A stretch of 56,993 nucleotides of DNA from a virus (taxonomy: Duplodnaviria; Caudoviricetes): IMG/VR virus record IMGVR_UViG_3300030389_002895, positions 1-56,993 of that record. One strand, 5' to 3'. Both the position numbers and the translations under genes were made by a program. This document shows positions 9,129-56,993 of the stretch, piece after piece. Within the stretch, counting starts at the first letter, position 1. The number at the start of each line of letters is the position of its first letter. The notes beneath the pieces are model-generated. The model worked only from the letters and a program-made list of their open reading frames with translations, was not told where the DNA came from and did not search any database.

Positions 9129-9221
9129 AATTTTCTCCTAGTTGTAGATATAGTTTTCTAGGTTATCTGCCAAGCCAGTCTATATCAATTATTATATTTC
9201 TTGGTAAATAAATTGTAACAT

Positions 9222-9248
9222 AAAAAAAGGGGCCTCGTAAGCCCCTTC
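9222..9248 (-). terminator. Rho-independent terminator after MCP
   Basis: Minus strand AAGGGGC-TTACGAG-GCCCCTT followed by T run. Confidence 0.85.
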
Positions 9249-9271
9249 TTTTAGTTTATTAAGGAGAAATT

Positions 9272-19344: not shown

Positions 19345-20820
19345 TCAATAATAGTTGTACTCTTTTGGTGGTCTATCTTCGTTATCGACATAATCAGAAT
19401 ATAGTTCCACAAAATTACCTTGTCTATATCGTAGCATAGCTTGTGTCATACTGTCCACATAGTCATCATTTGCACCATGAGGAAAAGCAGCACATTCATC
19501 TATTACATCATCTGCAAACTTTTCTCCATATGGAAACCATACAGCACCACTTTCAAACATTGGTGATACTGCATTTACTCTTGTAAATTTGTCATTACCT
19601 TTTGCAGGAACGAATGGTACAACAGGTATACCCATTCTTCTAAACTCTTGAGTCAATGGTTCTCCACTAGCTTTTTGTTCTATGATCACAGACTCTGGCT
19701 CCCAGTATCGGTAATGCTCTAACGCAACAGCTTTGAGTTCTGGAAAATCAAACTTGCCACGAAAAGCATCTAACAAAATTACTTGTGGTCCTCCACCCTC
19801 TTCTGGTAAAAAGACACCCCATGTTGTAATCGCACTATAGTCTGCTGTTTCTTTTTTACTAAATGCTGTATCATAACTTTGTATGACATGTACCAAATCA
19901 GGTATGCCATCTCTTTTCCAGGGCATCCACCATTCCCGTTTTATAATCGCACCTTCATCGGAAGTTGGTTCTTGCATGTATTGTGCTGACCAGTTTCTAA
20001 TTGGCACAGAAGACTTGATTGTTTCTAGTTCCTCTAAGTTCCAGTACTCAGGCCAGACTGGGTTGCCAGAAGGCAAAATAGCAGGAAAACTTATCTGGCG
20101 CCAGGAATCGGCTTTCGGTTCTGTTTGAGCCTTGAGTAATCTACCAGTTAAATCATCCTCAGCCCATCGTGTCATTACTAAAAGTATCGAGCCTCCAGGT
20201 TGTAATCTTTGTCTGGGTCCTGATGTGTACCAATCATATGCACGTTCCATAGCAACATCAGACATAGAATCTTGTTCCGTGTGTGGATCATCAATAATCA
20301 ATAAATCTGCACCACGACCCGTGATTGACGCACCAACACCAGCTGCATAATATTCTCCACCTTTGTTTGTTTCCCATCTACCTTTTGCTTTTGAGTCTTC
20401 TCTTAATTTAACATCCCCGAAAATTTGTTTGTACTCTGGTGAGTCTATGATGTTACGCACTTTACTCCCGAACCTTACTGCCAGTTCAGTATTATGAGAC
20501 ACTTGCATAATTTTCATTTTTGGATACTTACCAATAATCCAAGCAGGGAAGTACACGGATGCAAACTCAGACTTAGTATGTCTAGGAGGCATATTTATTA
20601 TGAGCCTCCCTTTTTTTTCTTTAGCTATGTCAGAAAATTCATTAGCTATAATCTGATGGTGTCCAAATTTTTTAGGATTATTAGTCTTACGATATATGAA
20701 ATCAGGCCATACCTCCTTAACAAAATATAAAAAATTGTCTTGGCAAAGCTGGACATGTTTAATCCAGAGCCTCTCTACTTCTAATCTTAATTTATCTGTA
20801 GTTAGATTTGTAGAGTCCAT
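19345..20820 (-). CDS. terL: Terminase large subunit
   Basis: MPPRHTKS Walker A variant, GRGADLLIIDDP Walker B, C-terminal nuclease DTA and DDYVDS motifs. Confidence 0.95.
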   Translation of the reverse strand: MDSTNLTTDKLRLEVERLWIKHVQLCQDNFLYFVKEVWPDFIYRKTNNPKKFGHHQIIANEFSDIAKEKKGRLIINMPPRHTKSEFASVYFPAWIIGKYPKMKIMQVSHNTELAVRFGSKVRNIIDSPEYKQIFGDVKLREDSKAKGRWETNKGGEYYAAGVGASITGRGADLLIIDDPHTEQDSMSDVAMERAYDWYTSGPRQRLQPGGSILLVMTRWAEDDLTGRLLKAQTEPKADSWRQISFPAILPSGNPVWPEYWNLEELETIKSSVPIRNWSAQYMQEPTSDEGAIIKREWWMPWKRDGIPDLVHVIQSYDTAFSKKETADYSAITTWGVFLPEEGGGPQVILLDAFRGKFDFPELKAVALEHYRYWEPESVIIEQKASGEPLTQEFRRMGIPVVPFVPAKGNDKFTRVNAVSPMFESGAVWFPYGEKFADDVIDECAAFPHGANDDYVDSMTQAMLRYRQGNFVELYSDYVDNEDRPPKEYNYY

Positions 20821-21656: not shown

Positions 21657-21684
21657 AGTATAAGGATATTATCCGATATAGCAA
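21657..21684 (-). promoter_or_regulatory. Sigma70-like early promoter
   Basis: TTGCTA-16-TATACT upstream of ACCAATGGAGG RBS. Confidence 0.65.
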
Positions 21685-22613: not shown

Positions 22614-22641
22614 ATTATACTATATATAACGGATAATGCAA
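22614..22641 (-). promoter_or_regulatory. Sigma70-like early promoter
   Basis: TTGCAT-16-TATAAT. Confidence 0.75.
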
Positions 22642-22770
22642 ACTATTTTTTCATTCAAATGTAGGACAAACAAGAATGTGATTGAACCCAGCCCGTGCTG
22701 CGGCCCTGGCCAGCCAGCTTCCAAAAAGAAAAAAGTCCCCGTTCTATGATGGGAACGGGAACGGGATTTG

Positions 22771-23228: not shown

Positions 23229-23256
23229 ATAATACTATATTTAACGGATAAGTCAA
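23229..23256 (-). promoter_or_regulatory. Sigma70-like early promoter
   Basis: TTGACT-16-TATTAT. Confidence 0.7.
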
Positions 23257-23492: not shown

Positions 23493-23776
23493 TAGAACTG
23501 CCTAATGAGTACACGACCCTCAGGTAAATTAGCCACCCACGTCTTGCCCTCTAAATCGTCAAAGGTTTTTATATTATTATAATCTTCTTTGAGCTTGTCG
23601 AATGTCTCATACTCTGCATAGTCACAGCAAAACGAAACTGGATCATACTCAATGTCCGAGTCCATCTCCTCCTCCCACTCGAAGATTTGCTCCCAAGCCT
23701 CATAGCTAAACTGCTTCCAGCGTGAGTGCTGCCGCACCTGCTCCAAAAAATTTTGTTTGTTTAAAGTTATTTTCAT
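23492..23776 (-). CDS. Acidic early protein
   Basis: QFSYEA...IF.W...E.DP..FCCDY.EY motif; start corrected to ATG after RBS. Confidence 0.75.
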   Translation of the reverse strand: MKITLNKQNFLEQVRQHSRWKQFSYEAWEQIFEWEEEMDSDIEYDPVSFCCDYAEYETFDKLKEDYNNIKTFDDLEGKTWVANLPEGRVLIRQF

Positions 23777-23801
23777 AATTCTCTCCATTGGTTATCCTTT
23801 A

Positions 23802-23830
23802 TATATATACAGGATTTTACAGGAAGTCAA
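23802..23830 (-). promoter_or_regulatory. Sigma70-like early promoter
   Basis: TTGACT-17-TATATA. Confidence 0.65.
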
Positions 23831-24006: not shown

Positions 24007-24414
24007 TCATGCAGCACGGGCCTGTAGCCAGATTATAATCTCCTCAACGGGGGTGGGCATTTGGTTGGTGGGAACGGGAACGGGAACTCCGGGCTCACGA
24101 ATCTCGTATAGTTTGGCAGGTACGTGAAAGAGGGGCCAGTTCAAGATGTATGCAGCTCCACCAGCTTCTCTGTAGTTAAGATGCCAAGAGATTTGATATT
24201 TTGATATGTTCAAATTCTTAGCTTGATTAGCTTTCAACTCTAGCCAAAAAGATACACCTACATAACAACAATGAACATCAGGGATTCCGTTGATTGTAGA
24301 GCTTTCTATTTTAGTAAAATGTGCCTCAGATTTATCTTTTTGATACAGGTTAAGGTAATTCCAAATTTTTTTTTCAGTTAACCTTTTTAATTTTCTTTTT
24401 TTCTGGTGTGACAT
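24007..24414 (-). CDS. PD-(D/E)xK nuclease, VRR-NUC/Holliday junction resolvase-like
   Basis: IES...GIPDV...FWLELK...Q..WH motifs; start uncertain. Confidence 0.8.
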   Translation of the reverse strand: MSHQKKRKLKRLTEKKIWNYLNLYQKDKSEAHFTKIESSTINGIPDVHCCYVGVSFWLELKANQAKNLNISKYQISWHLNYREAGGAAYILNWPLFHVPAKLYEIREPGVPVPVPTNQMPTPVEEIIIWLQARAA

Positions 24415-24895
24415 CTATAATAGTACTCCCATCATCTATCTTTTTTTCTAATTCTTTTAATCTTTTTTCTAATTGTTCTCTACTCATACCTTCAAGAGTA
24501 CTATGTAAAACTTCTTTTTTTTCTACAAATTGTCCAGCTAATTGACCTGAACGAAACTCTGCTGCTATCGCACCTGTATACTGTCCTTTTGCTTCAGCAC
24601 CATCACGTAATCTTTCAAAAGTTTTATATCTTCTTAATTTATCTTTTTCATATTTTTCTTGTTCCTTACCAAGTTTGTGTTCAAGGTACCTACATACATG
24701 TGGGTTGTAATTTGGATTTGTAAGTTTACTAGCCATAACCATTGCAGCGTCTTTTGTTTTAGTTTTGTAACCAGCTTGTAACAACGCATCAGTTTTTGAT
24801 ATTTGTCCCCACTGGCTAACTAATATATCAATAAACTTTTTTTGCTTAACTGTTAAATCTTCAATTGTTCTTACTTGTTTACTTCGTTGTGGCAT
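24374..24895 (-). CDS. terS: Terminase small subunit (putative)
   Basis: LT.KQ.KF...A..AGY HTH-type N-terminus; AE..SGQ..G.F.EK C-terminus. Confidence 0.7.
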   Translation of the reverse strand: MPQRSKQVRTIEDLTVKQKKFIDILVSQWGQISKTDALLQAGYKTKTKDAAMVMASKLTNPNYNPHVCRYLEHKLGKEQEKYEKDKLRRYKTFERLRDGAEAKGQYTGAIAAEFRSGQLAGQFVEKKEVLHSTLEGMSREQLEKRLKELEKKIDDGSTIIDVTPEKKKIKKVN

Positions 24896-24955
24896 ATATA
24901 TCTCTATACAAAAAATATTTATTTTTTATTTTTTTCTGCAAAACAGTCCTCTCTT

Positions 24956-25046
24956 TTCCCAAAAAACAGGAAAAATTCCCAAAACTTTCCCAAAACTATT
25001 TCTCTGTAATACTATGTTTTCTCTTGTTTTTTCCATTTTCCCAAAA
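24956..25046 (+). repeat. Four TTCCCAAAA direct repeats in AT-rich intergenic DNA
   Basis: Copies start at 24956, 24976, 24987 and 25038. Confidence 0.8.
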
Positions 25047-25138
25047 CTTTTGCCTATTTTACACTTATGTTTTTAAAAAAAAGTTTGTATAGACATATAT
25101 AGTATTATAGTAAAATTATAAAAAAATACAAAATTTTA

Positions 25139-25167
25139 TTGACTTATCCTGTAAAATCTAATAATTT
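25139..25167 (+). promoter_or_regulatory. Plus-strand sigma70-like promoter with no downstream ORF
   Basis: TTGACT-17-TAATTT; spacer TATCCTGTAAAATC matches the promoters at 23802-23830 and 28065-28093. Confidence 0.65.
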
Positions 25168-25172
25168 AAATT

Positions 25173-25262
25173 AAGTTCGATTCACAAAATCGAGCCTCCA
25201 TTGGTGTGGGTATCTAATCTTACTCTTTTTTAACATACTGAATATAGTTCAGGTACCCACCA
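25173..25262 (+). ncRNA. Candidate anti-Shine-Dalgarno small RNA
   Basis: Promoter, 8-bp and 10-bp stems whose G-U pairs favour the plus strand, and single-stranded CCUCCAUUGGU between them. Confidence 0.55.
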
Positions 25263-25763
25263 TTAACTAACAATCACAGACACCAAAGCAACAGTAACAT
25301 AACAGTTACTTCCAAGAACAGCTTCTTTTCTACTTAATTTTAATTGTTTTTTCAAAGAACTTTTTTGAGAAACACTACAAGCTTTTTGCCATTTTTTTAA
25401 AAGTAAACTATATTTTTTCCATTTTACCTGACTTTGTTTAAAACGTATTTTATTTTTAAGTATAGCTTTTTTGTAAGCAGCTCTTACATCATCAGGATCT
25501 AACATAGCCCAATTACAAACCTGGTCAAAATCAGAACAAGCACTCATAATCCAGTTATGTGCAGCTCCTTTTAATACAGCAGACTTTCTGTCAACTCTTT
25601 CTATCATAGTATCTTCCAGGGCATTTATAACTACACCTCTCCACATATAATTTTCAGGCATCATATTATCGTGAGACAATAACATTCTTGAAAATCTATA
25701 TCCTAGTTTTTTTAAAAATTCTGTTGAGGGAGGTTGAAATTGTTGTTTAGTCGCCATTGACAA
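25263..25763 (-). CDS. Conserved hypothetical protein
   Basis: WRGV..NALED...A.NW......DF..VC..A.LDP motif. Confidence 0.7.
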   Translation of the reverse strand: MSMATKQQFQPPSTEFLKKLGYRFSRMLLSHDNMMPENYMWRGVVINALEDTMIERVDRKSAVLKGAAHNWIMSACSDFDQVCNWAMLDPDDVRAAYKKAILKNKIRFKQSQVKWKKYSLLLKKWQKACSVSQKSSLKKQLKLSRKEAVLGSNCYVTVALVSVIVS

Positions 25764-25977
25764 TCTTGAACTTTAAAATATTGTTTTTTCTTTTCCTTGT
25801 TCTAGGTTGAAAGATAGCATTGTCAAACTCAGCATCGTAGCCGTGATTGAATTCAAAATCATCTCTATATTTTAAAGAACGCATAACGCCAGTAACGTAG
25901 TTATAATCTTCATTGTTAAGATTATCCCTAAGTATTTCTAACGCTATGTAAAAATCTTTTTTGTTTCTGTCAGCCAT
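25747..25977 (-). CDS. Hypothetical protein
   Basis: 76 aa ORF with AGGA RBS. Confidence 0.6.
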   Translation of the reverse strand: MADRNKKDFYIALEILRDNLNNEDYNYVTGVMRSLKYRDDFEFNHGYDAEFDNAIFQPRTRKRKNNILKFKIVNGD

Positions 25978-26053
25978 AAATATCCTAATGATGATAACAA
26001 ATGATCCATGGCTCGTGTTTCTTGTATCTAATTTAACAAATCAAAATATTTTT

Positions 26054-26275
26054 TCAACCTCTAATACTATCCCCTTCTTCTTTAGACTTTTGTATCATCT
26101 GGTCTTTAAATTTTGTTACACCGACCCTTCTTTGTTTTGCTACAGATTCAATGTAATCGTTTATGAGCATAGTAAGTGTACCTGTAAATTTTCTTTGCTG
26201 CAGGAATGATACCCCACGTACTGCGTGATAATCATTTATGTTTAAAGTTATGCTCTTCCATTTAGTTTTGTCCAT
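26054..26275 (-). CDS. Putative ribbon-helix-helix-like DNA-binding protein
   Basis: MDKTKWKSITL beta-strand-like start then helices; AGGAGG RBS; fold is inferred. Confidence 0.5.
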   Translation of the reverse strand: MDKTKWKSITLNINDYHAVRGVSFLQQRKFTGTLTMLINDYIESVAKQRRVGVTKFKDQMIQKSKEEGDSIRG

Positions 26276-26289
26276 AATACCTCCTATAG

Positions 26290-27123
26290 TTAATCGTGAC
26301 AAAAACACACGTCATCAGACTTATCAAAATCAAATAAATCTAACTGGCTTTTACTTATATCCAACAGCGTTTTGTAATCTGCTCTATCGTGTCGAAAAAC
26401 AAAACCATCTTTAGATTTATCACCTAATTGTTTCTTTTCTTGGTCTATCCACCATTGTGCTTTCTCTGGATAGTTTTTCATTATATTCATAATGGTGTTC
26501 TTACCCTTCAAGAAACATAAATCACAATTACCAAGTGGTGTCTTACCTTTAATACCTGGTAATCGTAAATCAAAGTCACAGTTCTCCCAAAATTTTGCTA
26601 CATCTCTAACTGTTTTCTTTGCCCCATGTAGAGGTGCTTCACTCTCCCACCTCTCTTTATCTTTTGCTCTTAATAATCTAGCTACCCTATGTGGTTCATC
26701 ATAACGCAAACCAACATAGTTAAACCAGCTTTTGTGTCCTCTTGCCATCATAAATTCTTTCATAGGTCTTATCTTTAATTCTGATGTGCAATATCTTGTT
26801 ACTGGATTTGGTAAAAATTTTCTTTTGTTTATTAGTTTATCGTAAGGCTCCCCGTTTCGTGATGCGGAGTTATGGTTTACTTCTACAATCTTTTTCTCTT
26901 CATCCCACTCAATCCAATGGATTTTTACATCCCAGTTGACTGCACAATCACGTACAAAATCTAAAGTAGCATCCATTTCTTTACCGGTATTTGCAAAAAC
27001 TACATAGAGCTGCTCGGGTAGTTTGTCATCAAAATGGTCTAGTATTTCACGTAACATAAAGCCAGAGGTTCGCCCCCCTGAGAAACTTAATAGACCAGGT
27101 GTTCGTATGTTATATAAACTCAT
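26290..27123 (-). CDS. PAPS reductase-family (adenine nucleotide alpha hydrolase, PP-loop) protein
   Basis: SFSGGRTS, FANTGKE, RYCTSELK, VGLRYDE, GNCDLCFLKG and C-terminal CFCHD. Confidence 0.85.
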   Translation of the reverse strand: MSLYNIRTPGLLSFSGGRTSGFMLREILDHFDDKLPEQLYVVFANTGKEMDATLDFVRDCAVNWDVKIHWIEWDEEKKIVEVNHNSASRNGEPYDKLINKRKFLPNPVTRYCTSELKIRPMKEFMMARGHKSWFNYVGLRYDEPHRVARLLRAKDKERWESEAPLHGAKKTVRDVAKFWENCDFDLRLPGIKGKTPLGNCDLCFLKGKNTIMNIMKNYPEKAQWWIDQEKKQLGDKSKDGFVFRHDRADYKTLLDISKSQLDLFDFDKSDDVCFCHD

Positions 27124-27439
27124 CTTGTTTTTTTCTATAGATATACTCTATGTGACTAGTATCTTCTCTTATTTTTAACAGCACCATTTTTATTGCAGTT
27201 CTTCTGTCAAATAAATTATGTCTATTGCCTTCGCTATCATAAAAATTTATTTTTGTTATATTTCGTATGGTTCTTTTATAATCGTAAGCGGTACTTTTGT
27301 TACCTTTTTCATTAATACCACTTACGTTATCTAATTGGTAAGATAAGGCGTCAAACAGTTCTTCTTTAGTTTGACAACGCATACTAACAATTACCTCCCT
27401 CACCATGTATGAGATCCATTTCTTTTTGTGCCTCTTCAA
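27110..27439 (-). CDS. Hypothetical protein
   Basis: 109 aa ORF in operon; start uncertain. Confidence 0.55.
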   Translation of the reverse strand: MKRHKKKWISYMVREVIVSMRCQTKEELFDALSYQLDNVSGINEKGNKSTAYDYKRTIRNITKINFYDSEGNRHNLFDRRTAIKMVLLKIREDTSHIEYIYRKKQDEFI

Positions 27440-27626
27440 AATAATCTTTTACAGCTTGTTTTTGTTCAACTGGCATACCTTCTAACAAACAAACCCTAAT
27501 GTTCTCATCTCTTAACATCTGGTTCATCGCTTCAGTTTTGGTAATCTTCTTAGCCCTAAACTCTACCATAATTTCTTCTACTTTTTTTTCTGCTAACTCT
27601 GTGCAGTAATCAAATAATTTACTCAT
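27384..27626 (-). CDS. Hypothetical protein
   Basis: 80 aa ORF coupled to neighbours. Confidence 0.6.
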   Translation of the reverse strand: MSKLFDYCTELAEKKVEEIMVEFRAKKITKTEAMNQMLRDENIRVCLLEGMPVEQKQAVKDYFEEAQKEMDLIHGEGGNC

Positions 27627-27870
27627 AATATTCTTCTACCTTTCCTTTGTTTTTTGATTTCATAAAATCTTTACCGAATGCAGCTTCATTTATTTTTTGT
27701 ATTTGTTTTTTATATTGCACTATTTTATTTTCACACATTTCTATACAAATACCAGCTAAGCCAATCAAAGGACTTTGTTGAGCTTTCGCTATTAAATCCT
27801 CCTGTCTTTTTATTTTTTTTAATAGGCTATCTAATCTAGCTTTATTTATGTTAACAACATTACTCATCAT
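27619..27870 (-). CDS. Hypothetical protein
   Basis: 83 aa ORF with GGAG RBS. Confidence 0.6.
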   Translation of the reverse strand: MMSNVVNINKARLDSLLKKIKRQEDLIAKAQQSPLIGLAGICIEMCENKIVQYKKQIQKINEAAFGKDFMKSKNKGKVEEYYE

Positions 27871-27898
27871 GTTTCGTGCTCCGTTATGTTAATAAATT

Positions 27899-28058
27899 AA
27901 ATGGGTAGATACCAAACGTGGTCTTCTGAGAATTTATATACCTACCCACCTTTTTCCAAATAAATAAATAAATAAAAGTATGGAGACACTTTTATTTAAG
28001 TATGAATTACGCAAGGATAGGGCTTGAAAAATCAATAAAGAGCCCAAACGTAACCCAT
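27899..28058 (-). ncRNA. Candidate structured small RNA or regulatory leader with UCUCCA loop
   Basis: Promoter upstream; three stems, G-U pairs favour minus strand. Confidence 0.45.
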
Positions 28059-28064
28059 ATACTA

Positions 28065-28093
28065 TATATAAGTGATTTTATCGGATATGTCAA
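28065..28093 (-). promoter_or_regulatory. Sigma70-like promoter
   Basis: TTGACA-TATCCGATAAAATCACT(17)-TATATA. Confidence 0.7.
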
Positions 28094-28098
28094 TACCC

Positions 28099-29973
28099 TT
28101 ACATCGCTTCGCCAAAGTTTTTTCCTAACGCTATATCTACAACACTAGGCACATTTAGATCCATACAGTTCTCCATAGTATTCTTTATTTTTTCTATCTG
28201 GCTCTTATTTTCTACATTAAAACATAATTCATCATGTATCTGTAGTATTGGTTGTATGCCTAGCTCTTCTTTACAAGCAACGATTGCTGCTTTAGTTTGA
28301 TCGGCTGCACTACCCTGTATTAATCTATTTAATGCTTTGTAGGTATAACATCTTTTAATATTGTTTCTACCATACTTTGCTACTGCGTTATCAAATTTTT
28401 CTGGTGTGTATACTCCAAAGTCTTTCGGCTCCCACATATTAAATCTACACTTACGACCTTTCTTAGTTCGTATGACACCGGTCTCATTTGCTTTACGCAT
28501 ACAACGATCCGAGAGCTGCTTAACAAAAGGCACCTTATCATTGTATTTGTTTATCAATGCTATTGCCTCATCATACTCAAGACCTAACATGTTCGATAGT
28601 TTGTGTTTACCCATACCATACATCAGACCAAGTCCGATGGTCTTTGCTTCCTTACGACCAATACCACATATGTCAGCTACAGTTTGATGAAAGTCAGCAT
28701 CTGCATTTGCATAAGCTTCAACAAGTTCCTGGCTACCTTCGTACCCTTCACCGATACTACTAGCATAATGTACTACCAGTCTAGGCTCCTGTTGAGAGTA
28801 GTCAAAACTACCCCATTCACATTTTTCTTCTGGTAAAAATAACCCTCTTATCAGTGGACCAAAATCTTTGTTTCTAGCAGGTAGTTGTTGTAGGTTAGGG
28901 TTTGACATAGATAACCTGCCAGAAACAGTCCCACCATTGTCAGATCGTAGCTGATTAATCTCACCATAAATCCGACCATTGTGTTCGTATTTCATTATAC
29001 TAGATAAAAATGTATTATGAAACTTATTTATCTCTCTTGTTTGTACAATGAGTTTACTAAATTCATGTGTACTATTTGATAACCAGTTTTGTGTAAAGCT
29101 TGGCTCTTTTGACTTTTCTGTTCTAGGATACTCAACACCTAGTTTGTCATACGCCCAGGCTATTTGTCGAGCTGCCCATATGTCTATATCTTTACCAATC
29201 ATTTTGTTTATCTTATGTAATAAATCTTTTTCTTTTTTTATAAAGTTTTGTCGAAGTAGAGCTGCTTCTTGCACATCTACACGAACACCCTTCCATCTCA
29301 TATCAATAAGTATAGGTAATAAATCTCTTTCCATTTGCCATACTGTATCTAAACTTTCTTTATTTATTACATGTTTGAAGTGCTGCCATAAAAGATACGT
29401 GAGCCGTGCATCTTGCTCAGCGTAATGTCCAACATGTTCAGCTGGCAACTTCCACATCTCAGCCTTCGGATCTACACCAAACATTTTAGCTGCCTCATTT
29501 AAATCTGTTTCTGCTTTTATCTCACCAAGATAATCTTTTGCTAAACTGTTTAACCTGTAAGAGTACCTGTTCTCATCAATCAATGCTCCAGCAATCATGG
29601 TATCGACAATCTCCCCTTTGACCTCAATACCATGAGCTCGAAGCCATCCCACATCGTAGGGTGCGTTGTGAAATATCTTACGACAAGGCAGCGCACATAT
29701 CTTTTTCATATAATTAATTACTTGTTCTTTAATTAAATTACCACCTCCATAATGATCCATAGGATAGTAACCCTGCCAACCATCAGTAGCTACAGCAAAA
29801 CCAACTATCTTACCTTTGTTTAAAGCCCAGCCAGCCCCTAATCCTTCATTAATACCATCATCTCTAGTTTCTAAATCTATTGCGATCTCTTTTGCATAGG
29901 TCAAATCCTTATATTCTACTGGTGCAGACCATATATTCTTCTTATAATTAAAAACTAACTGTAAATTAGCCAT
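28099..29973 (-). CDS. polA: Family A DNA polymerase with 3'-5' exonuclease domain
   Basis: IDLET and FHNA.YD exo motifs; SGRLS..NPNLQQ, DYSQQE.R (A), R..AKT..LG..YG (B), QIHDEL (C). Confidence 0.96.
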   Translation of the reverse strand: MANLQLVFNYKKNIWSAPVEYKDLTYAKEIAIDLETRDDGINEGLGAGWALNKGKIVGFAVATDGWQGYYPMDHYGGGNLIKEQVINYMKKICALPCRKIFHNAPYDVGWLRAHGIEVKGEIVDTMIAGALIDENRYSYRLNSLAKDYLGEIKAETDLNEAAKMFGVDPKAEMWKLPAEHVGHYAEQDARLTYLLWQHFKHVINKESLDTVWQMERDLLPILIDMRWKGVRVDVQEAALLRQNFIKKEKDLLHKINKMIGKDIDIWAARQIAWAYDKLGVEYPRTEKSKEPSFTQNWLSNSTHEFSKLIVQTREINKFHNTFLSSIMKYEHNGRIYGEINQLRSDNGGTVSGRLSMSNPNLQQLPARNKDFGPLIRGLFLPEEKCEWGSFDYSQQEPRLVVHYASSIGEGYEGSQELVEAYANADADFHQTVADICGIGRKEAKTIGLGLMYGMGKHKLSNMLGLEYDEAIALINKYNDKVPFVKQLSDRCMRKANETGVIRTKKGRKCRFNMWEPKDFGVYTPEKFDNAVAKYGRNNIKRCYTYKALNRLIQGSAADQTKAAIVACKEELGIQPILQIHDELCFNVENKSQIEKIKNTMENCMDLNVPSVVDIALGKNFGEAM

Positions 29974-34390: not shown

Positions 34391-34973
34391 CGTTTTTTCC
34401 TTTCTCAATTTTTGTTTCGGTTTTCAAAAATACTTTAAATAAATCATCTTCAAATGGTAAGTTCTTTTCTTTCACTGCTCTTATGTGTGCGTTCAAAGAA
34501 TTTGCATTTACGGATTCATTTAAAGTTGGAGTGAGTCCTCTCTCTTCTAGCTCAGCTTTCAAAGCTTTCGCTTCATTGTCTTGACCTTTGCTAAAAGGAA
34601 CAGATAACTCGTTCTTCACTAAAGACCTATGACCCTCATCATTACTTAAATACTGTAAGCATTTTTCTCTTCGGTCGGCTAGTTCTTTATCTTTAAGACA
34701 AGCTTTTATAGTAGGTATGTAACCAGTATAAAAACTTTTTATCTTAATCTTATCACCCTTATCAGTAACAAATTCCTGCATACCAATATCTTTCATTTTG
34801 GTAGGAATGTCTACTTCTGATAATTGTCTTTGAGTTGCTTTCAGAGCCGCAAGAGCTGACATTAAATCTTCGATAGCCTTTTCATTCTTCAGCATATCTT
34901 CAACTAATTGACTTAACTCTTTTAGTTGGTCGTCTCCAAAATTCATTTCGATCTTTACTTCTTCTTGATTCAT
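34383..34973 (-). CDS. Conserved replication-module protein
   Basis: LSE..IP..M...G, VKNE..V.F.KGQD and V....L.A motifs; start corrected. Confidence 0.7.
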   Translation of the reverse strand: MNQEEVKIEMNFGDDQLKELSQLVEDMLKNEKAIEDLMSALAALKATQRQLSEVDIPTKMKDIGMQEFVTDKGDKIKIKSFYTGYIPTIKACLKDKELADRREKCLQYLSNDEGHRSLVKNELSVPFSKGQDNEAKALKAELEERGLTPTLNESVNANSLNAHIRAVKEKNLPFEDDLFKVFLKTETKIEKGKNDE

Positions 34974-35001
34974 GTTTTCCTCCATTAAAAATAACAAGTT
35001 A

Positions 35002-35040
35002 TATTATTTACTTGTATTGTCAACAAAAAAATCCTATATT
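35002..35040. promoter_or_regulatory. Divergent promoter region
   Basis: Plus strand TTGTAT-17-TATATT just before SNF2 ATG; minus strand TTGACA toward replication operon. Confidence 0.5.
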
Positions 35041-35046
35041 TCTAAT

Positions 35047-36450
35047 ATGTCACATATATACAAGAGAAAACCTTTAGAACATCAACGAGAAGCGTTAAAT
35101 AAAAGCTTTGATAAAAAGTATTTTTTATACCTTATGGGTATGGGTACAGGTAAAACAAAAGTGGCTATTGACAATGCAGTATTTTTATTTAACCAGGGCG
35201 AAATAGATACTGTATTCATAGTTGTACCTAATAGCATTACACATAACTGGCTAAAAGAAATAGATGTAGATAGTTCTGCAAAAGGTTTTAAATATTTATT
35301 TCGTAGAGACACTTTTGATTATCATTTGAAGGATCATATAAATTGGTATGTAATGAATGTTGAAGCTTTATCTCACGCTAGTGGAGTTAAAGTAGCAAAA
35401 AAATTAATTGATAAACATGGTGATAGAATGTACATGGTTGTGGATGAATGCACTACCATAAAAAATCACAAAGCTAAAAGAACAAAAAATATAATTAAGA
35501 TTGCAAAAAATGTAAAATACAAAAGAGGAATGACAGGATCACCTACAGCAAAAAGTCCTCTTGATTTATATAGTCAATGTGAATTTTTAAAAGATGGTTT
35601 ATTAGGTTTTAGTTCTTACTATTCTTTTCAAGCTCGATATGCAAAACTAAGACCTCTTACTCGAGAAGGATTTAGACAAGCTATGATACCATATGATTAC
35701 CAAAACTTAGCTGAGTTGTTTAATAAAGTAAAACCTTTTTCATATAGAAAGATAAAAGAGGAGTGTTTAGATTTACCACCAAAGATACACACGAGAAGAG
35801 AACTAAGTATGTCAACACAACAACTTGAAATTTATAACCAACTTAAAAAATATGCCAGAGCTGTTTTGTTAGATAAAAAAACTAGCTATACAAATAAACT
35901 AACAGAGATATTAAGATTACATCAAGTGACCTGTGGTTTTTTTAAATCTGATACTGGTGAGATACAAGAATTAAATAATCCAAAATTAAAAGAGCTTATA
36001 AATATTTTAGAAGAGATGGATGGTAAAGTAATTATTTGGGCTAACTACATTTATAATATAGAACAGATAATTAAAACACTTAAAGATAAGTTTCCTTATG
36101 ATAGAACAGTTAGTGTATATGGTGCGGTAAGTGTAACTGATAGAGATAAAGCAGTTGAGAACTTTCAAAAAGATCCTTACACAAAATTTTTAGTAGGTAA
36201 TCCTGCAACAGGAGGGTATGGTTTAAATCTTACAGAGGCTGATACAGTCATATATTATAGTAACAGTTATGACTTAACTGTAAGAGAACAGTCAGAAGAC
36301 AGAGCCCACAGAAAAGGTCAGACAAAAAGTGTAACTTATATTGATTTAGTTATGACAGGAACTATAGATGAGTTTATATTAAAAGCACTCAATGATAAAA
36401 AAAGAATGTCAGCTCAAGTTTTAGGAGAAGAGGTACTTAACTTTTTATAA
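35047..36450 (+). CDS. SNF2-family (SF2) helicase
   Basis: HQ, MGTGKT, VDEC, TGSP, GGYGLNLT and QSEDRAHRKGQ motifs; likely start ATG 35047. Confidence 0.92.
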   Translation: MSHIYKRKPLEHQREALNKSFDKKYFLYLMGMGTGKTKVAIDNAVFLFNQGEIDTVFIVVPNSITHNWLKEIDVDSSAKGFKYLFRRDTFDYHLKDHINWYVMNVEALSHASGVKVAKKLIDKHGDRMYMVVDECTTIKNHKAKRTKNIIKIAKNVKYKRGMTGSPTAKSPLDLYSQCEFLKDGLLGFSSYYSFQARYAKLRPLTREGFRQAMIPYDYQNLAELFNKVKPFSYRKIKEECLDLPPKIHTRRELSMSTQQLEIYNQLKKYARAVLLDKKTSYTNKLTEILRLHQVTCGFFKSDTGEIQELNNPKLKELINILEEMDGKVIIWANYIYNIEQIIKTLKDKFPYDRTVSVYGAVSVTDRDKAVENFQKDPYTKFLVGNPATGGYGLNLTEADTVIYYSNSYDLTVREQSEDRAHRKGQTKSVTYIDLVMTGTIDEFILKALNDKKRMSAQVLGEEVLNFL

Positions 36451-37867: not shown

Positions 37868-38503
37868 TTATTTCTTTAACTTGGTTGTATATTTTTTACC
37901 TTGGTAAGTAAAAGTTTTCTTACCAGCTTTTCTAGCTTTAGCAAAAGAAGTTTCAAACGCTGACATTTTTTTCTTTTTCTTTCTATTTGATAAAGCAGGA
38001 ATACCCACTGTAGCTGCACCTGTATAAGCTGCACCAGTTAAAAACCCTTGTCCATAACCTGGTTTCTTTTTACGTGTAGCTGTTGGAATAGGTGTCTTTC
38101 TTCGTCTTGCTTCTAACGCTGCGCTAGCTTTTTTTGTAGCTGGTGTTGGAACTTTTCCTGTTGTAAAGTATTTAGCTGCTCTTTCTAAATCTTTTTTCAT
38201 AATCGGATCAGACATTTTAAATCCTGGTCTTACTTTTCCTAAAGCTTTTTTAAGTGCTACCATAGTAAGACCTCCAAGAGAAGCTTTCATCATTCTAGCT
38301 CCACCCTTAGAGTATCCTTTTGCCATCTTACCACCTCTGGCTCTCATCATACGAGCTCCGCCTTTCGAGTAGCCTTTTGCCATCTTGCCACCCATAGCTT
38401 TCATCATTCGTGCTCCGCCTTTAGAATAACCTTTAGCCATTTTACCACCTCTGGCTCTCATCATTCTAGCACCACCTTTACTATAACCTTTTGTTTTTCT
38501 CAT
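37868..38503 (-). CDS. Highly basic repeat protein (KGYSKGGARMMxAxGGKMA repeats)
   Basis: About four 19-aa repeats; C-terminal F...F..AR.AG..TF...GK.YTT motif. Confidence 0.8.
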   Translation of the reverse strand: MRKTKGYSKGGARMMRARGGKMAKGYSKGGARMMKAMGGKMAKGYSKGGARMMRARGGKMAKGYSKGGARMMKASLGGLTMVALKKALGKVRPGFKMSDPIMKKDLERAAKYFTTGKVPTPATKKASAALEARRRKTPIPTATRKKKPGYGQGFLTGAAYTGAATVGIPALSNRKKKKKMSAFETSFAKARKAGKKTFTYQGKKYTTKLKK

Positions 38504-56120: not shown

Positions 56121-56930
56121 TTAACTCCCTGCTCCGTTGGTAGGGCTATCAATAACTTGATAATGTGTTCCCATACCTGTTGTAAAGTCATTACCATTTC
56201 CTGAACTGTCATTACCTAAATCGCTTGCATTTTCAAATTTAAGATGAAAACCATTATTACCAAATGTAGTACCACTTGGGTCTTTTGGAATCCACACACC
56301 ATTTTTAGTTTCACCAAATTGAGTAGGTGCGTAAGCTTGTCCATCTGCGAAGATAGCTTCAGCTTGATAGCCATTAAAATTATATACTCCGTAATAAGCT
56401 TCTGTCCCTAAAACATATTGTGTAGCACCACTTGTGTTAAATTTAAAATCTTCATTTTGTGGGTAATGACCACTACTAACAGTGCCAGACATATCTATTT
56501 GACTACCATTAACATAAACTTTTACTCTATCACCTGAACTTGATTGTGCTGAATCAAAAACCACTACTATATGATAGAAACTAGATGTATCTCTAAATTG
56601 AGCTGTACTTTTATGACCATAACTTGTGCCACCTCTTTGTCCTTGTAATGTAATTTTATCATCACCATCAAAATGAAGCATATCAAATTGAGTATTACCA
56701 GTTCCTCCATAAAACCAAGCATTGAAATCACCGCCAGTAGATACTTCACTTCTTTTCACCCAAGCACTTAAAGTGCCTTTATCAACATTTGAAGGTGTTC
56801 CAACACTTGTTTTTTTAAGAGTATAATTGTCTCCAGAAGTGCCATCGCCTCTTACCGACTGATTGATTTGATATTCATAGAAGCCACTAGCTCCACCTGG
56901 ATTTTGAAAAAACTCACCTTGTACTGGCAT
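56121..56930 (-). CDS. Concanavalin A-like (LamG) tail fibre protein
   Basis: T.SAWVKRS, FRD.S..YHIVV, YVNG and GFHLKF...LG.DSSGNGNDF motifs. Confidence 0.8.
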   Translation of the reverse strand: MPVQGEFFQNPGGASGFYEYQINQSVRGDGTSGDNYTLKKTSVGTPSNVDKGTLSAWVKRSEVSTGGDFNAWFYGGTGNTQFDMLHFDGDDKITLQGQRGGTSYGHKSTAQFRDTSSFYHIVVVFDSAQSSSGDRVKVYVNGSQIDMSGTVSSGHYPQNEDFKFNTSGATQYVLGTEAYYGVYNFNGYQAEAIFADGQAYAPTQFGETKNGVWIPKDPSGTTFGNNGFHLKFENASDLGNDSSGNGNDFTTGMGTHYQVIDSPTNGAGS

Positions 56931-56993
56931 TACTTATGTCTCCTATGCAAATGCAAGTTGTGGTGCTCCTAGTTGAATACTTGCAGAAGCCTT
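56893..56993 (+). repeat. Terminal direct repeat / assembly overlap, copy 2
   Basis: Matches 1-101 with one mismatch. Confidence 0.97.

Follow-up and report, generated by a model that had tools for sequence, protein, structure and literature searches.

What fills the gap between the DNA polymerase gene and the operon that follows it in the phage genome IMGVR_UViG_3300030389_002895? The window analysed here is the whole virus record, 56,993 bp long, and the gap in question spans 228 nucleotides (nt), from the polymerase stop (28099) to the next minus-strand start (27870). A preliminary description, made from the sequence alone, had seen there a promoter and three RNA stems, one of which exposes a loop able to pair with Shine-Dalgarno (SD) sequences, and every feature that it listed can be read directly on the minus strand. 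The array of hairpins at 27871-28060 is structured, strand-specific, conserved, modular and free of any open reading frame (ORF) that withstands comparison with relatives. As to its role, we give a probability of about 0.5 to a promoter joined to a cis-acting structured leader, or intercistronic RNA module, leading from the polymerase gene to the operon; its start site, its termination or processing and its effect on expression are steps that we infer.

Read on the minus strand, the segment 27871-28060 folds at -47.5 kcal/mol, against -32.8 +/- 3.7 kcal/mol for shuffled sequences (z = -3.97; 0 of 200 shuffles equal it). Taken as a whole, the gap has a z of -4.23 on its sense (minus) strand and of +0.21 on the antisense strand; the first value is the second strongest sense-strand z among 13 intergenic gaps, each compared with 30 shuffles. 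With this excess stability, which is found on the minus strand only, the features of the array can be considered real and above chance, and the early claim of a structured RNA on that strand is borne out. The most stable of the 13 gaps, 9129-9271, reaches z values of -5.8 (minus strand) and -5.3 (plus strand), and is a strand-symmetric hairpin, since both strands are similarly stable.

The array consists of three helices (Table 1). The outer stem of helix 1, pairing 28059-28048 with 28012-28001, begins at the predicted +1 (about 28058); the inner stem pairs 28045-28041 with 28024-28020, and the internal loop on the 3' side, UAUCCUU, is conserved. The GGGCU/AGCCC hairpin first described is thus real, but it is the tip of a larger helix that starts at the expected 5' end of the transcript. 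Helix 2 pairs 27997-27986 with 27981-27970 through a stem that contains 1 G-C pair, and a U-rich tail follows at 27950-27969 (UUUAUUUAUUUAUUU); the stem had been correctly seen, but the loop, given as UCUCCA, is a tetraloop, its outer U and A closing the stem. Helix 3, announced as a stem with G.U pairs, joins 27949-27938 to 27912-27901, and the minimum-energy fold adds inner pairs; its loop of 25 nt is conserved (AAAUUCUCAGAAGAYCAC). Both helices 2 and 3 are preceded by an A-rich run and followed by a U-rich one. In the window, 8 nt separate the GGAG of the SD sequence from the ATG.

Table 1. Features of the window and contigs that carry the array
Feature	Positions	Strand	Basis or remark
-35 hexamer TTGACA	28088..28093	-	read from sequence; kept in relatives
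Conserved spacer motif TATCCGATAAA, near-palindrome TATCnGATA	28077..28087	-	invariant in alignment A1
-10-like hexamer TATATA	28065..28070	-	17-nt spacing from -35
Helix 1: 12-bp outer stem and 5-bp inner GGGCU/AGCCC	28001..28059	-	single-sequence and alignment folds
Helix 2: A/U-rich 12-bp stem, CUCC tetraloop (27982-27985)	27970..27997	-	folds; optional module
Helix 3: 12-bp stem GUGGGUAGGUAU/GUAUCUACCCAU including G.U pairs, then UUUAAUUUAUU	27901..27949	-	folds
SD sequence GGAG (27879-27882) and ATG (27868-27870)	27868..27882	-	first gene of operon 27870-25263
DNA polymerase gene, family A, 624 amino acids	28099..29973	-	ORF list, translation, nucleotide match to HTVC023P
Operon behind the leader	27870-25263	-	first ATG 27868-27870
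Promoter-like word TTGACTTATCCTGTAAAAT and type A hairpin, converging on operon end	25139..25260	+	the "25173" element of the preliminary description
Terminase large subunit	19345-20820		domain scan
L187, array carrier			56.8-kb record with terminal repeats
L102 = L185, array carrier
L186 (scaffold G005), array carrier
L003, array carrier			cut by contig end
L103 = L183, array carrier			cut after helix 1

Is this structure kept in other phages? Relatives were gathered by polymerase-based searches, which found hundreds of polymerase relatives and provided 80 loci each from IMG/VR and from metagenomes, by a scan for the promoter word (8 stretches), and by the protein of the relatives' first gene (9 loci). 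The same array lies 3' of the polymerase gene in five other distinct metagenomic phage contigs. The hairpin modules occur in one copy in the window and in one copy each in the related records G001 and G004, and in none in G002 and G003; a module-by-module nhmmer search over 248 loci and the window gave no further copies of the array. Pattern scans of viral contigs, with the cassette of the ribosome-binding site (RBS), the loop and 3' arm of helix 3, the 3' arm of helix 1, and the loop and one arm of helix 2, returned known contigs and chance coding hits only; the helix 1 pattern had 0 matches in genome contigs, and the query with the first-gene protein gave new leaders of a second type, called type A below, and no new array. 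Phages with 67-80% polymerase identity have other genes at this site, and the phages HTVC023P and HTVC027P do not carry the array.

The window and the five contigs form alignment A1, of 6 closely related sequences, in which five helices are named. In this alignment, pairing holds in 202 of the 210 stem cells (96.2%); sliding the 3' partners by 1-3 columns, as a control, lowers this share to 32-52%. The true register also shows 16 additional pair types, where the slid ones show 4-8. Both sides changed in two pairs, from U-A to C-G in helix 2 and from A-U to G-C in helix 3, and 13 pairs changed on one side yet still pair; 36 cells are G.U, which would turn into mismatches on the opposite strand, where 167 of 210 cells pair (79.5%). 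RNAalifold finds helices 1, 2 and 3 unaided. The outer stem of helix 1 is paired in 98.6% of its cells over the 6 sequences, with 4 pairs that vary on one side and remain paired; helix 2 is paired at 100% in its 3 carriers, with 1 two-sided and 5 one-sided changes; and helix 3 at 95.8%, with 1 two-sided and 4 one-sided changes. The conservation in related phages on which the preliminary description had made its case depend is therefore present: a strand-specific, compensated structure stands between promoter and RBS, as in a structured cis-regulatory leader.

Where would such an RNA begin? The TTGACA promoter proposed for this locus holds up: its -35 hexamer is perfect, its spacing is right, and it is conserved among relatives, which keep the block TTGAC-N-TATCCGA(T/G)AAAAT; the promoter call rests on these three points. 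The polymerase stop codon, at 28099-28101, is 5 nt upstream of the -35 hexamer, and transcription is predicted to start at about 28058. Helix 1 starts 7-8 nt after the -10-like hexamer, a geometry also seen in relatives with other hairpins: the succession of -35, 17 nt, TA-rich hexamer, 7-8 nt and TGGG recurs in them with other -10 words. With at most 3 mismatches, the promoter word is found twice in the window (28075-28093 on the minus strand and 25139-25157 on the plus strand) when 0.02 are expected, and the spacer motif, with at most 1 mismatch, is found 11 times when 3.5 are expected. Exact copies of TATCCGATAAA sit in promoter-like sites at 23240-23250(-) and 22625-22635(-), with another at 21670-21680, and the motif is the mark of a promoter family in this phage. 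The promoter word recurs about 5-6 times in the genome, but the hairpin modules do not: elsewhere, the promoters of this family are followed by short, hairpin-free leaders.

Four promoter-like sites, all on the minus strand (21657-21684, 22614-22642, 23229-23256 and 23801-23830), have the spacer word TATCCG(A/T)TA or CCTGTAAAA, then a short leader and a common RBS cassette, AACCAATGGAG(G/A). The ORF list places gene starts at the ATG within this cassette (23788, 22596, 23218); the true starts are probably 12 nt further on, for example at the ATG at 23776.

The array is built of modules that come and go. Of the 5 relatives in which the stretch of helix 2 is visible, 3 have this helix and 2, L187 and L003, do not; its carriers in the alignment are the window, L102 and L186. 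The missing stretch is a clean indel of 35 nt in L187 and a gap of somewhat greater length in L003. The sole ORF within the array (27934-28047, 37 amino acids, TTG start) is broken by this indel and by the matching gap, and a coding reading was rejected. The distal hairpin is doubled, as 3a and 3b, in L102 and L186, and helix 3 of the window combines the loop of 3a with the arms and the tail found in 3b. The last part of the array in scaffold G005 is helix 3b with its tail, and 17 nt further on comes a second promoter copy, with its own leader, RBS and gene; the same junction is seen again, with small differences, beyond a 10-N gap. This is one metagenomic scaffold with evident strain variants, whose two promoters share a 27-nt repeat. 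Because a second promoter follows the array there, the array can be a unit without an ORF. The window, L187 and L102 have the array joined directly to the cassette AACATAACGGAGCACGAAACATG, identical in the last two. In the relatives L101, L102 and L187, the leader ATG opens a gene of 87 amino acids (MKQKRKIRSF...); the window is without this gene, and there the ATG runs in frame into the start of the gene that comes next (27862-27870, ATGATGAGT).

Contigs without the array have the same promoter type followed by a single hairpin, type A, of the form GUGGGNNN-loop-NNNCCCAC. Its stem covaries at 3 positions over 11 sequences, which include copies located elsewhere in G005 and in the window, and its G.U pairs occur in the promoter orientation only. 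All hairpin types start with (A/G)UGGGU, 7-8 nt after the -10, and end with ACCCA(C/U); the "GUGGGUA core" that had been noted in two RNAs of the window is common to them because all types share this word at the base of the stem. In L002, L005, L186 (5714-5850) and L317, the promoter and the type A hairpin are separated by an extra structured domain, about 100 nt long and closed by AUGUAUU.../...GAAUACAU, which has no Rfam or tRNA match. In L004-L016 and L104-L107, which are more distantly related, the polymerase gene is followed on its 3' side by a small ORF on the opposite strand and then by a divergent region with the inverted repeat TGTCAA...TTGACT, where the promoter word TTGACTTATCCCATA precedes a small gene (MDTTRWKSVAVKVEDH...); this region may be a switch-like regulator pair.

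It is natural to conjecture that a host RNA polymerase of the sigma-70 type starts at about 28058, so that helix 1 would form at the very 5' end of the RNA and serve as its cap, the RNA then running through helices 2 and 3 into the RBS at 27882-27868. Helices 2 and 3 would be leaky terminators, or hairpins that protect and process 3' ends, and would end or trim part of the transcripts coming from the polymerase gene and from the promoter. By such trimming, the module would insulate the polymerase transcript and set the amount of RNA that enters the operon, with a stable leader RNA of about 105-165 nt arising as a by-product. In evolution, the module gains, loses and recombines whole hairpins at the stem base (U/G)UGGGU...ACCCA. 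An attenuating leader for the operon was one of the two roles first suggested for this RNA, and the RNA does lie where such a leader has to be.

Several results weigh against this conjecture. The terminator scan does not call helices 2 and 3 intrinsic terminators, because helix 2 has too few G-C pairs and helix 3 an over-large loop: there is 1 G-C pair in the first stem, the loop of the second has 25 nt, and the tails are UUUAUUUAUUU and UUUAAUUUAUU. Weak or leaky termination may still occur. Canonical terminators with U7 tails are present elsewhere in the genome. A generic sigma-70 consensus scan does not list the promoter at 28093-28065, because its -10 word is without the usual T at position 6. 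The array is missing from 8 of the 14 distinct contigs (L101, L002, L004, L005, L006, L313, L317 and L318), all of which have type A instead. The loop of helix 3 and the CUCC word are conserved in sequence, which a purely structural role does not explain. Finally, in shuffle control (a), the covariation score is matched by 16 of 500 shuffles, and the count of two-sided pairs by 131 of 500; with this weaker control, and with sequences so few and so close, the covariation is suggestive and not decisive.

Could the array instead be an RNA gene in its own right? Its product would be a phage small RNA (sRNA) of about 105-165 nt, or up to 215 nt in relatives, with its own promoter and an end at helix 2 or 3, whose CUCC would pair in trans with the RBSs of phage or host genes. 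This was the main idea of the preliminary description; we hold it to be unlikely, and retain it because each lineage keeps one exposed CUCC. That word is rare on the sense strand, with 67 occurrences in 56,993 nt against 233 on the other strand. Where helix 2 is carried, in the window, L102 and L186, CUCC is its tetraloop; in L187, L003 and, as far as it is visible, L103, the internal loop of helix 1 has CCUCCUU in place of the UAUCCUU of the others. Every array thus keeps one CUCC, unpaired with a probability of at least 0.94 in the ensemble, a pattern that comes from two lineages only and was seen post hoc. The loop word is unchanged between the window and L186, though 7 of the 24 stem positions differ, and the loop word of L186, UCUCCGU, is perfectly complementary to ACGGAGA, a word in its own operon's RBS. 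The array has a promoter and no ORF, and in G005 it leads directly to a second promoter.

However, helix 2 is dispensable: of the anti-SD hairpin first described, the exposed CUCC is found in each array, but the hairpin itself is optional, being missing in L187 and L003. A 4-nt loop on a 12-bp stem leaves little room for pairing, and complementarity to GGAG is trivial for any CUCC. The fit that had been pointed out between UCUCCAU and the AUGGAGA preceding the ATG at 23776 is a real complementarity, but it consists of the SD core and three flanking bases, and two of the loop bases make up the closing pair of the stem; beyond the SD core, the complementarity of loop and target extends to 7 nt at best, in two lineages only. 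The array leads directly, with no second promoter, to the RBS in the window, L187 and L102, so that a tight terminator would silence the operon, and the scan called no canonical terminator. Nor is there a match to an sRNA family: Rfam 15 in gathering mode has 0 matches in the whole window, in E-value mode over 24850-28200 it has nothing within 27871-28098, and the homologous units of L186, L002, L005, L102 and L187 have no match. The Rfam comparison that had been recommended for this element thus yields no family at or above threshold.

A related proposal, on which we would bet still less, is that an RNA from a dedicated middle-type promoter keeps one exposed anti-SD word, CUCC or CCUCCUU, on a hairpin scaffold that can be swapped, and that, while the host is being taken over, it acts in trans on the RBSs of phage or host messages or as a decoy of the rRNA tail; CCUCCUU is the same word as the 3' end of 16S rRNA. 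If this were true, the phage would bring a translational regulator into a host lineage that has very few regulators.

There is also a slim chance that nothing beyond the promoter is under selection, and that the hairpins are drifting filler or remnants of recombination. The contigs that lack the array and the coming and going of individual hairpins would then be expected, and in sequences this close the pairing may partly reflect shared ancestry. However, all 15 varying pairs of helices 2, 3 and outer helix 1 keep pairing, except in 3 cells, the changes pass through G.U intermediates on one strand only, and the stability is strongly strand-asymmetric.

Slimmer again is the prospect of a translational switch in cis, in which the exposed CUCC, or the 5' half of helix 1, would pair with the SD sequence of the operon and gate its first gene. 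Both CUCC and GGAG are on one RNA; the minimum-energy fold of L102 opens helix 1 and pairs it with the RBS, its SD bases being unpaired with a probability of only 0.02-0.05; and 6 of 11 type A hairpins have ACUCC on the loop's 5' side, some 45 nt upstream of the SD sequence. However, the modular fold dominates, the SD sequence being mostly free in the window (unpaired with a probability of 0.62-0.98 per base in the ensemble) and in L187 (0.17-0.96 per base), and the window loop matches its own RBS, ACGGAGC, at only 4 positions plus one. A loop-SD pseudoknot in type A hairpins was likewise rejected: the loop types (CUCC, CUCUUUUUU, CUUUUUUUU) and the RBS types do not covary (n = 11).

The least probable alternative is an element acting as DNA, either a replication origin or priming site, formed by a promoter and an A/T-rich stretch or by strand-specific hairpins in single-stranded DNA, or a recombination hotspot with by-product hairpins: the array does adjoin primase, helicase and polymerase genes, has A/T-rich runs (TTTATTTATTTATTTATTT), comes with tandem promoters in G005, swaps modules at shared TGGGT/ACCCA words and has G.T pairs that DNA hairpins tolerate too, but the first helix starts exactly at the expected transcript start in every variant, iterons are absent from the array and an iteron-like array lies elsewhere (about 24960-25050), and the GC skew has no turning point anywhere in the window.

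Preferring a promoter and a structured leader for the array, what should be made of the second RNA, at 25173, that had been called its paralogue? The pattern GGTGGGTA-N15-45-TACCCA, picked post hoc, occurs twice in the window, at 27902-27950 and 25207-25261, when 0 are expected. The plus-strand promoter word of the second element matches that of the array at 16 of 19 positions (17 of 20 in a second comparison), and the gap 25262-24896 has a z of -3.84 on the plus strand against -1.77 on the minus strand. The promoter word is followed by a small hairpin, CCUCCAUU, and by a type A hairpin at 25206-25260, with 9 pairs from the TGGG anchor, or 10 with the G-C pair that precedes it; it has one U.G, which becomes a mismatch if read on the minus strand, and 19 bases of its loop are identical to L004 in the plus orientation. 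The element is of the single-hairpin kind seen after the polymerase gene in eight relatives and behind the array in G005. The relation claimed between the two RNAs survives for the promoter and the base of the stem, but not for the transcribed parts, since 29 of 500 shuffles score at least as high; paralogy beyond the promoter was rejected. The two elements seem to share a promoter class and a hairpin "grammar" and not a common RNA.

The second element is possibly an antisense RNA unit, at 25139-25260(+), since it is oriented opposite to all the genes around it. A similarly placed antisense promoter-like word, TTGACTTCATCCTGTAAAT, is seen in G001, with a different hairpin. A SAM-V riboswitch (RF01826) at 25207-25267 on the minus strand, matched through the single-stranded words UGAACU.UAUU ... 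UAAAAA.GAGUAA, was considered and rejected, because its score is low (29.6 bits, below the gathering threshold of 41; E-value 0.055 for 3.3 kb, or about 1 per window), there is no start codon in reach and no ORF following on the minus strand, and both the homologues and the G.U pair favour the other strand. The region 24896-25120 is conserved in G001, G002 and G004. Within it, at 24960-25050 in the minus reading, are 4-5 iteron-like copies of (A)GTTTTGGGAAA(A), in the gap before a terminase-small-subunit-like gene (24374-24895), and G001 shows the same repeats; a regulator array, a pac site and an origin are all possible readings of them.

The surrounding genome is that of an uncultivated marine phage, HTVC023P-like by its polymerase gene. 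This label, which does not extend to the host, is used because HTVC023P is the sole cultured relative at the DNA level: among 50,697 records, only this Pelagibacter phage matches, over the polymerase part alone, with 72.6% nucleotide identity across 280 nt. The window, whose G+C content ranges over 30-40%, has a CheckV completeness of 95% and is classed as linear by IMG/VR. A direct terminal repeat of 101 nt, with 99% identity (1-101 and 56893-56993), reflects either an overlap in the assembly of a circularly permuted genome or short terminal repeats. All long ORFs are on the minus strand, with the single exception of a SNF2-type helicase (34972-36450). A domain scan of large proteins shows a protein with an AEP-type primase domain and a UvrD-like helicase in the neighbourhood of the polymerase, and no phage-type RNA polymerase domain among the 10 large window proteins scanned. 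No tRNA or tmRNA is found in the window or in six relatives. The operon contains a PAPS-reductase-like gene, 26290-27123(-), which matches PHROG 424 (E-value 4e-46) and Pfam PF01507 (E-value 3e-6); the small proteins of the operon and the first gene of the relatives, compared with Pfam and PHROGs, give no family that points to an RNA-binding partner. In-frame coding tandem repeats at 38282-38493 (57-nt units, x3) and 1161-1575 (30-66-nt units, x7) probably encode repetitive structural proteins.

The main text of a genomics paper on this phage group mentions no promoters, non-coding or intergenic elements, RNA polymerase or terminators (PMC9599517), and the main text of a transcriptome paper mentions no promoters, non-coding or intergenic elements or sRNA (PMC12753301). 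For the relatives of this group, the present locus provides a conserved promoter word, TTGAC-N-TATCCGATAAA, by which a set of transcription units can be recognised, and a first structured RNA with evolutionary support and without an Rfam family. Should it act in trans as well, the RNA would give phages a new kind of tool against the translation apparatus of SAR11-like hosts.

How does the array compare with known systems? Phage T7 has, in its early and intercistronic regions, hairpins that are processed by RNase III and that leave protective hairpins at RNA ends. These hairpins are irregular and about 50 nt long, and in a podovirus-like genome read in one direction they separate a host-type promoter from the first gene, and cistrons from one another; the array would be similar in this layout, but its sequences are unrelated to them. 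The put sites of HK022 and the nut sites of lambda are promoter-proximal stem-loops that act on the polymerase that made them, and there too the stem-loops come right after an early promoter and are followed by terminator-like hairpins; the array, however, matches no Rfam family, no strong terminator was shown downstream of it, and its boxA-like word GCUCUUUA, in helix 1, was rejected as a candidate, being found in the window copy only and not kept in relatives. The alphaproteobacterial AbcR and alpha-r14 "cuckoo" RNAs are multi-hairpin sRNAs with anti-SD loops, that is, several hairpins with a C/U-rich anti-SD word in the loop; the array has one CUCC per RNA and not long repeated motifs, carries it in a tetraloop or an internal loop, is phage-encoded, and shows no homology to them and no Rfam match.

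The closest described system, by analogy, is the promoter-early stem-loop (PeSL) cassette of T4-type phages, similar to the array in its parts and in its evolution, though the array fails two of its defining features. As described in two papers, a PeSL cassette consists of a strong sigma-70-like promoter, one or more stem-loops, and the SD sequence and start of the next gene; the cassettes lie at the boundaries of indels or replacements between close relatives, and their recombination is proposed to shuffle genes (PMC2839356; PMC4122927). As portrayed there, a PeSL has one G/C-rich stem-loop, beside or inside the promoter, that terminates upstream transcription (PMC2839356), and occurs in many copies per genome, flanking variable genes; the array has 1-4 hairpins of 30-60 nt in a transcribed leader of 130-215 nt, all downstream of the -10, and occurs once per genome. 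The two have no sequence relation. The likeness lies in the arrangement: both are intergenic cassettes that run from a sigma-70-like promoter (with an imperfect -10 in the array) through hairpins to an SD sequence and a start codon, at a boundary of gene gain or loss, which in our case is the gene following the cassette: L101, L102 and L187 have it, and from the window it is precisely absent. The locus clearly illustrates how regulatory hairpins are exchanged as modules at a single genomic site, and so parallels, in an unrelated phage group, the cassettes of the T4-type phages.

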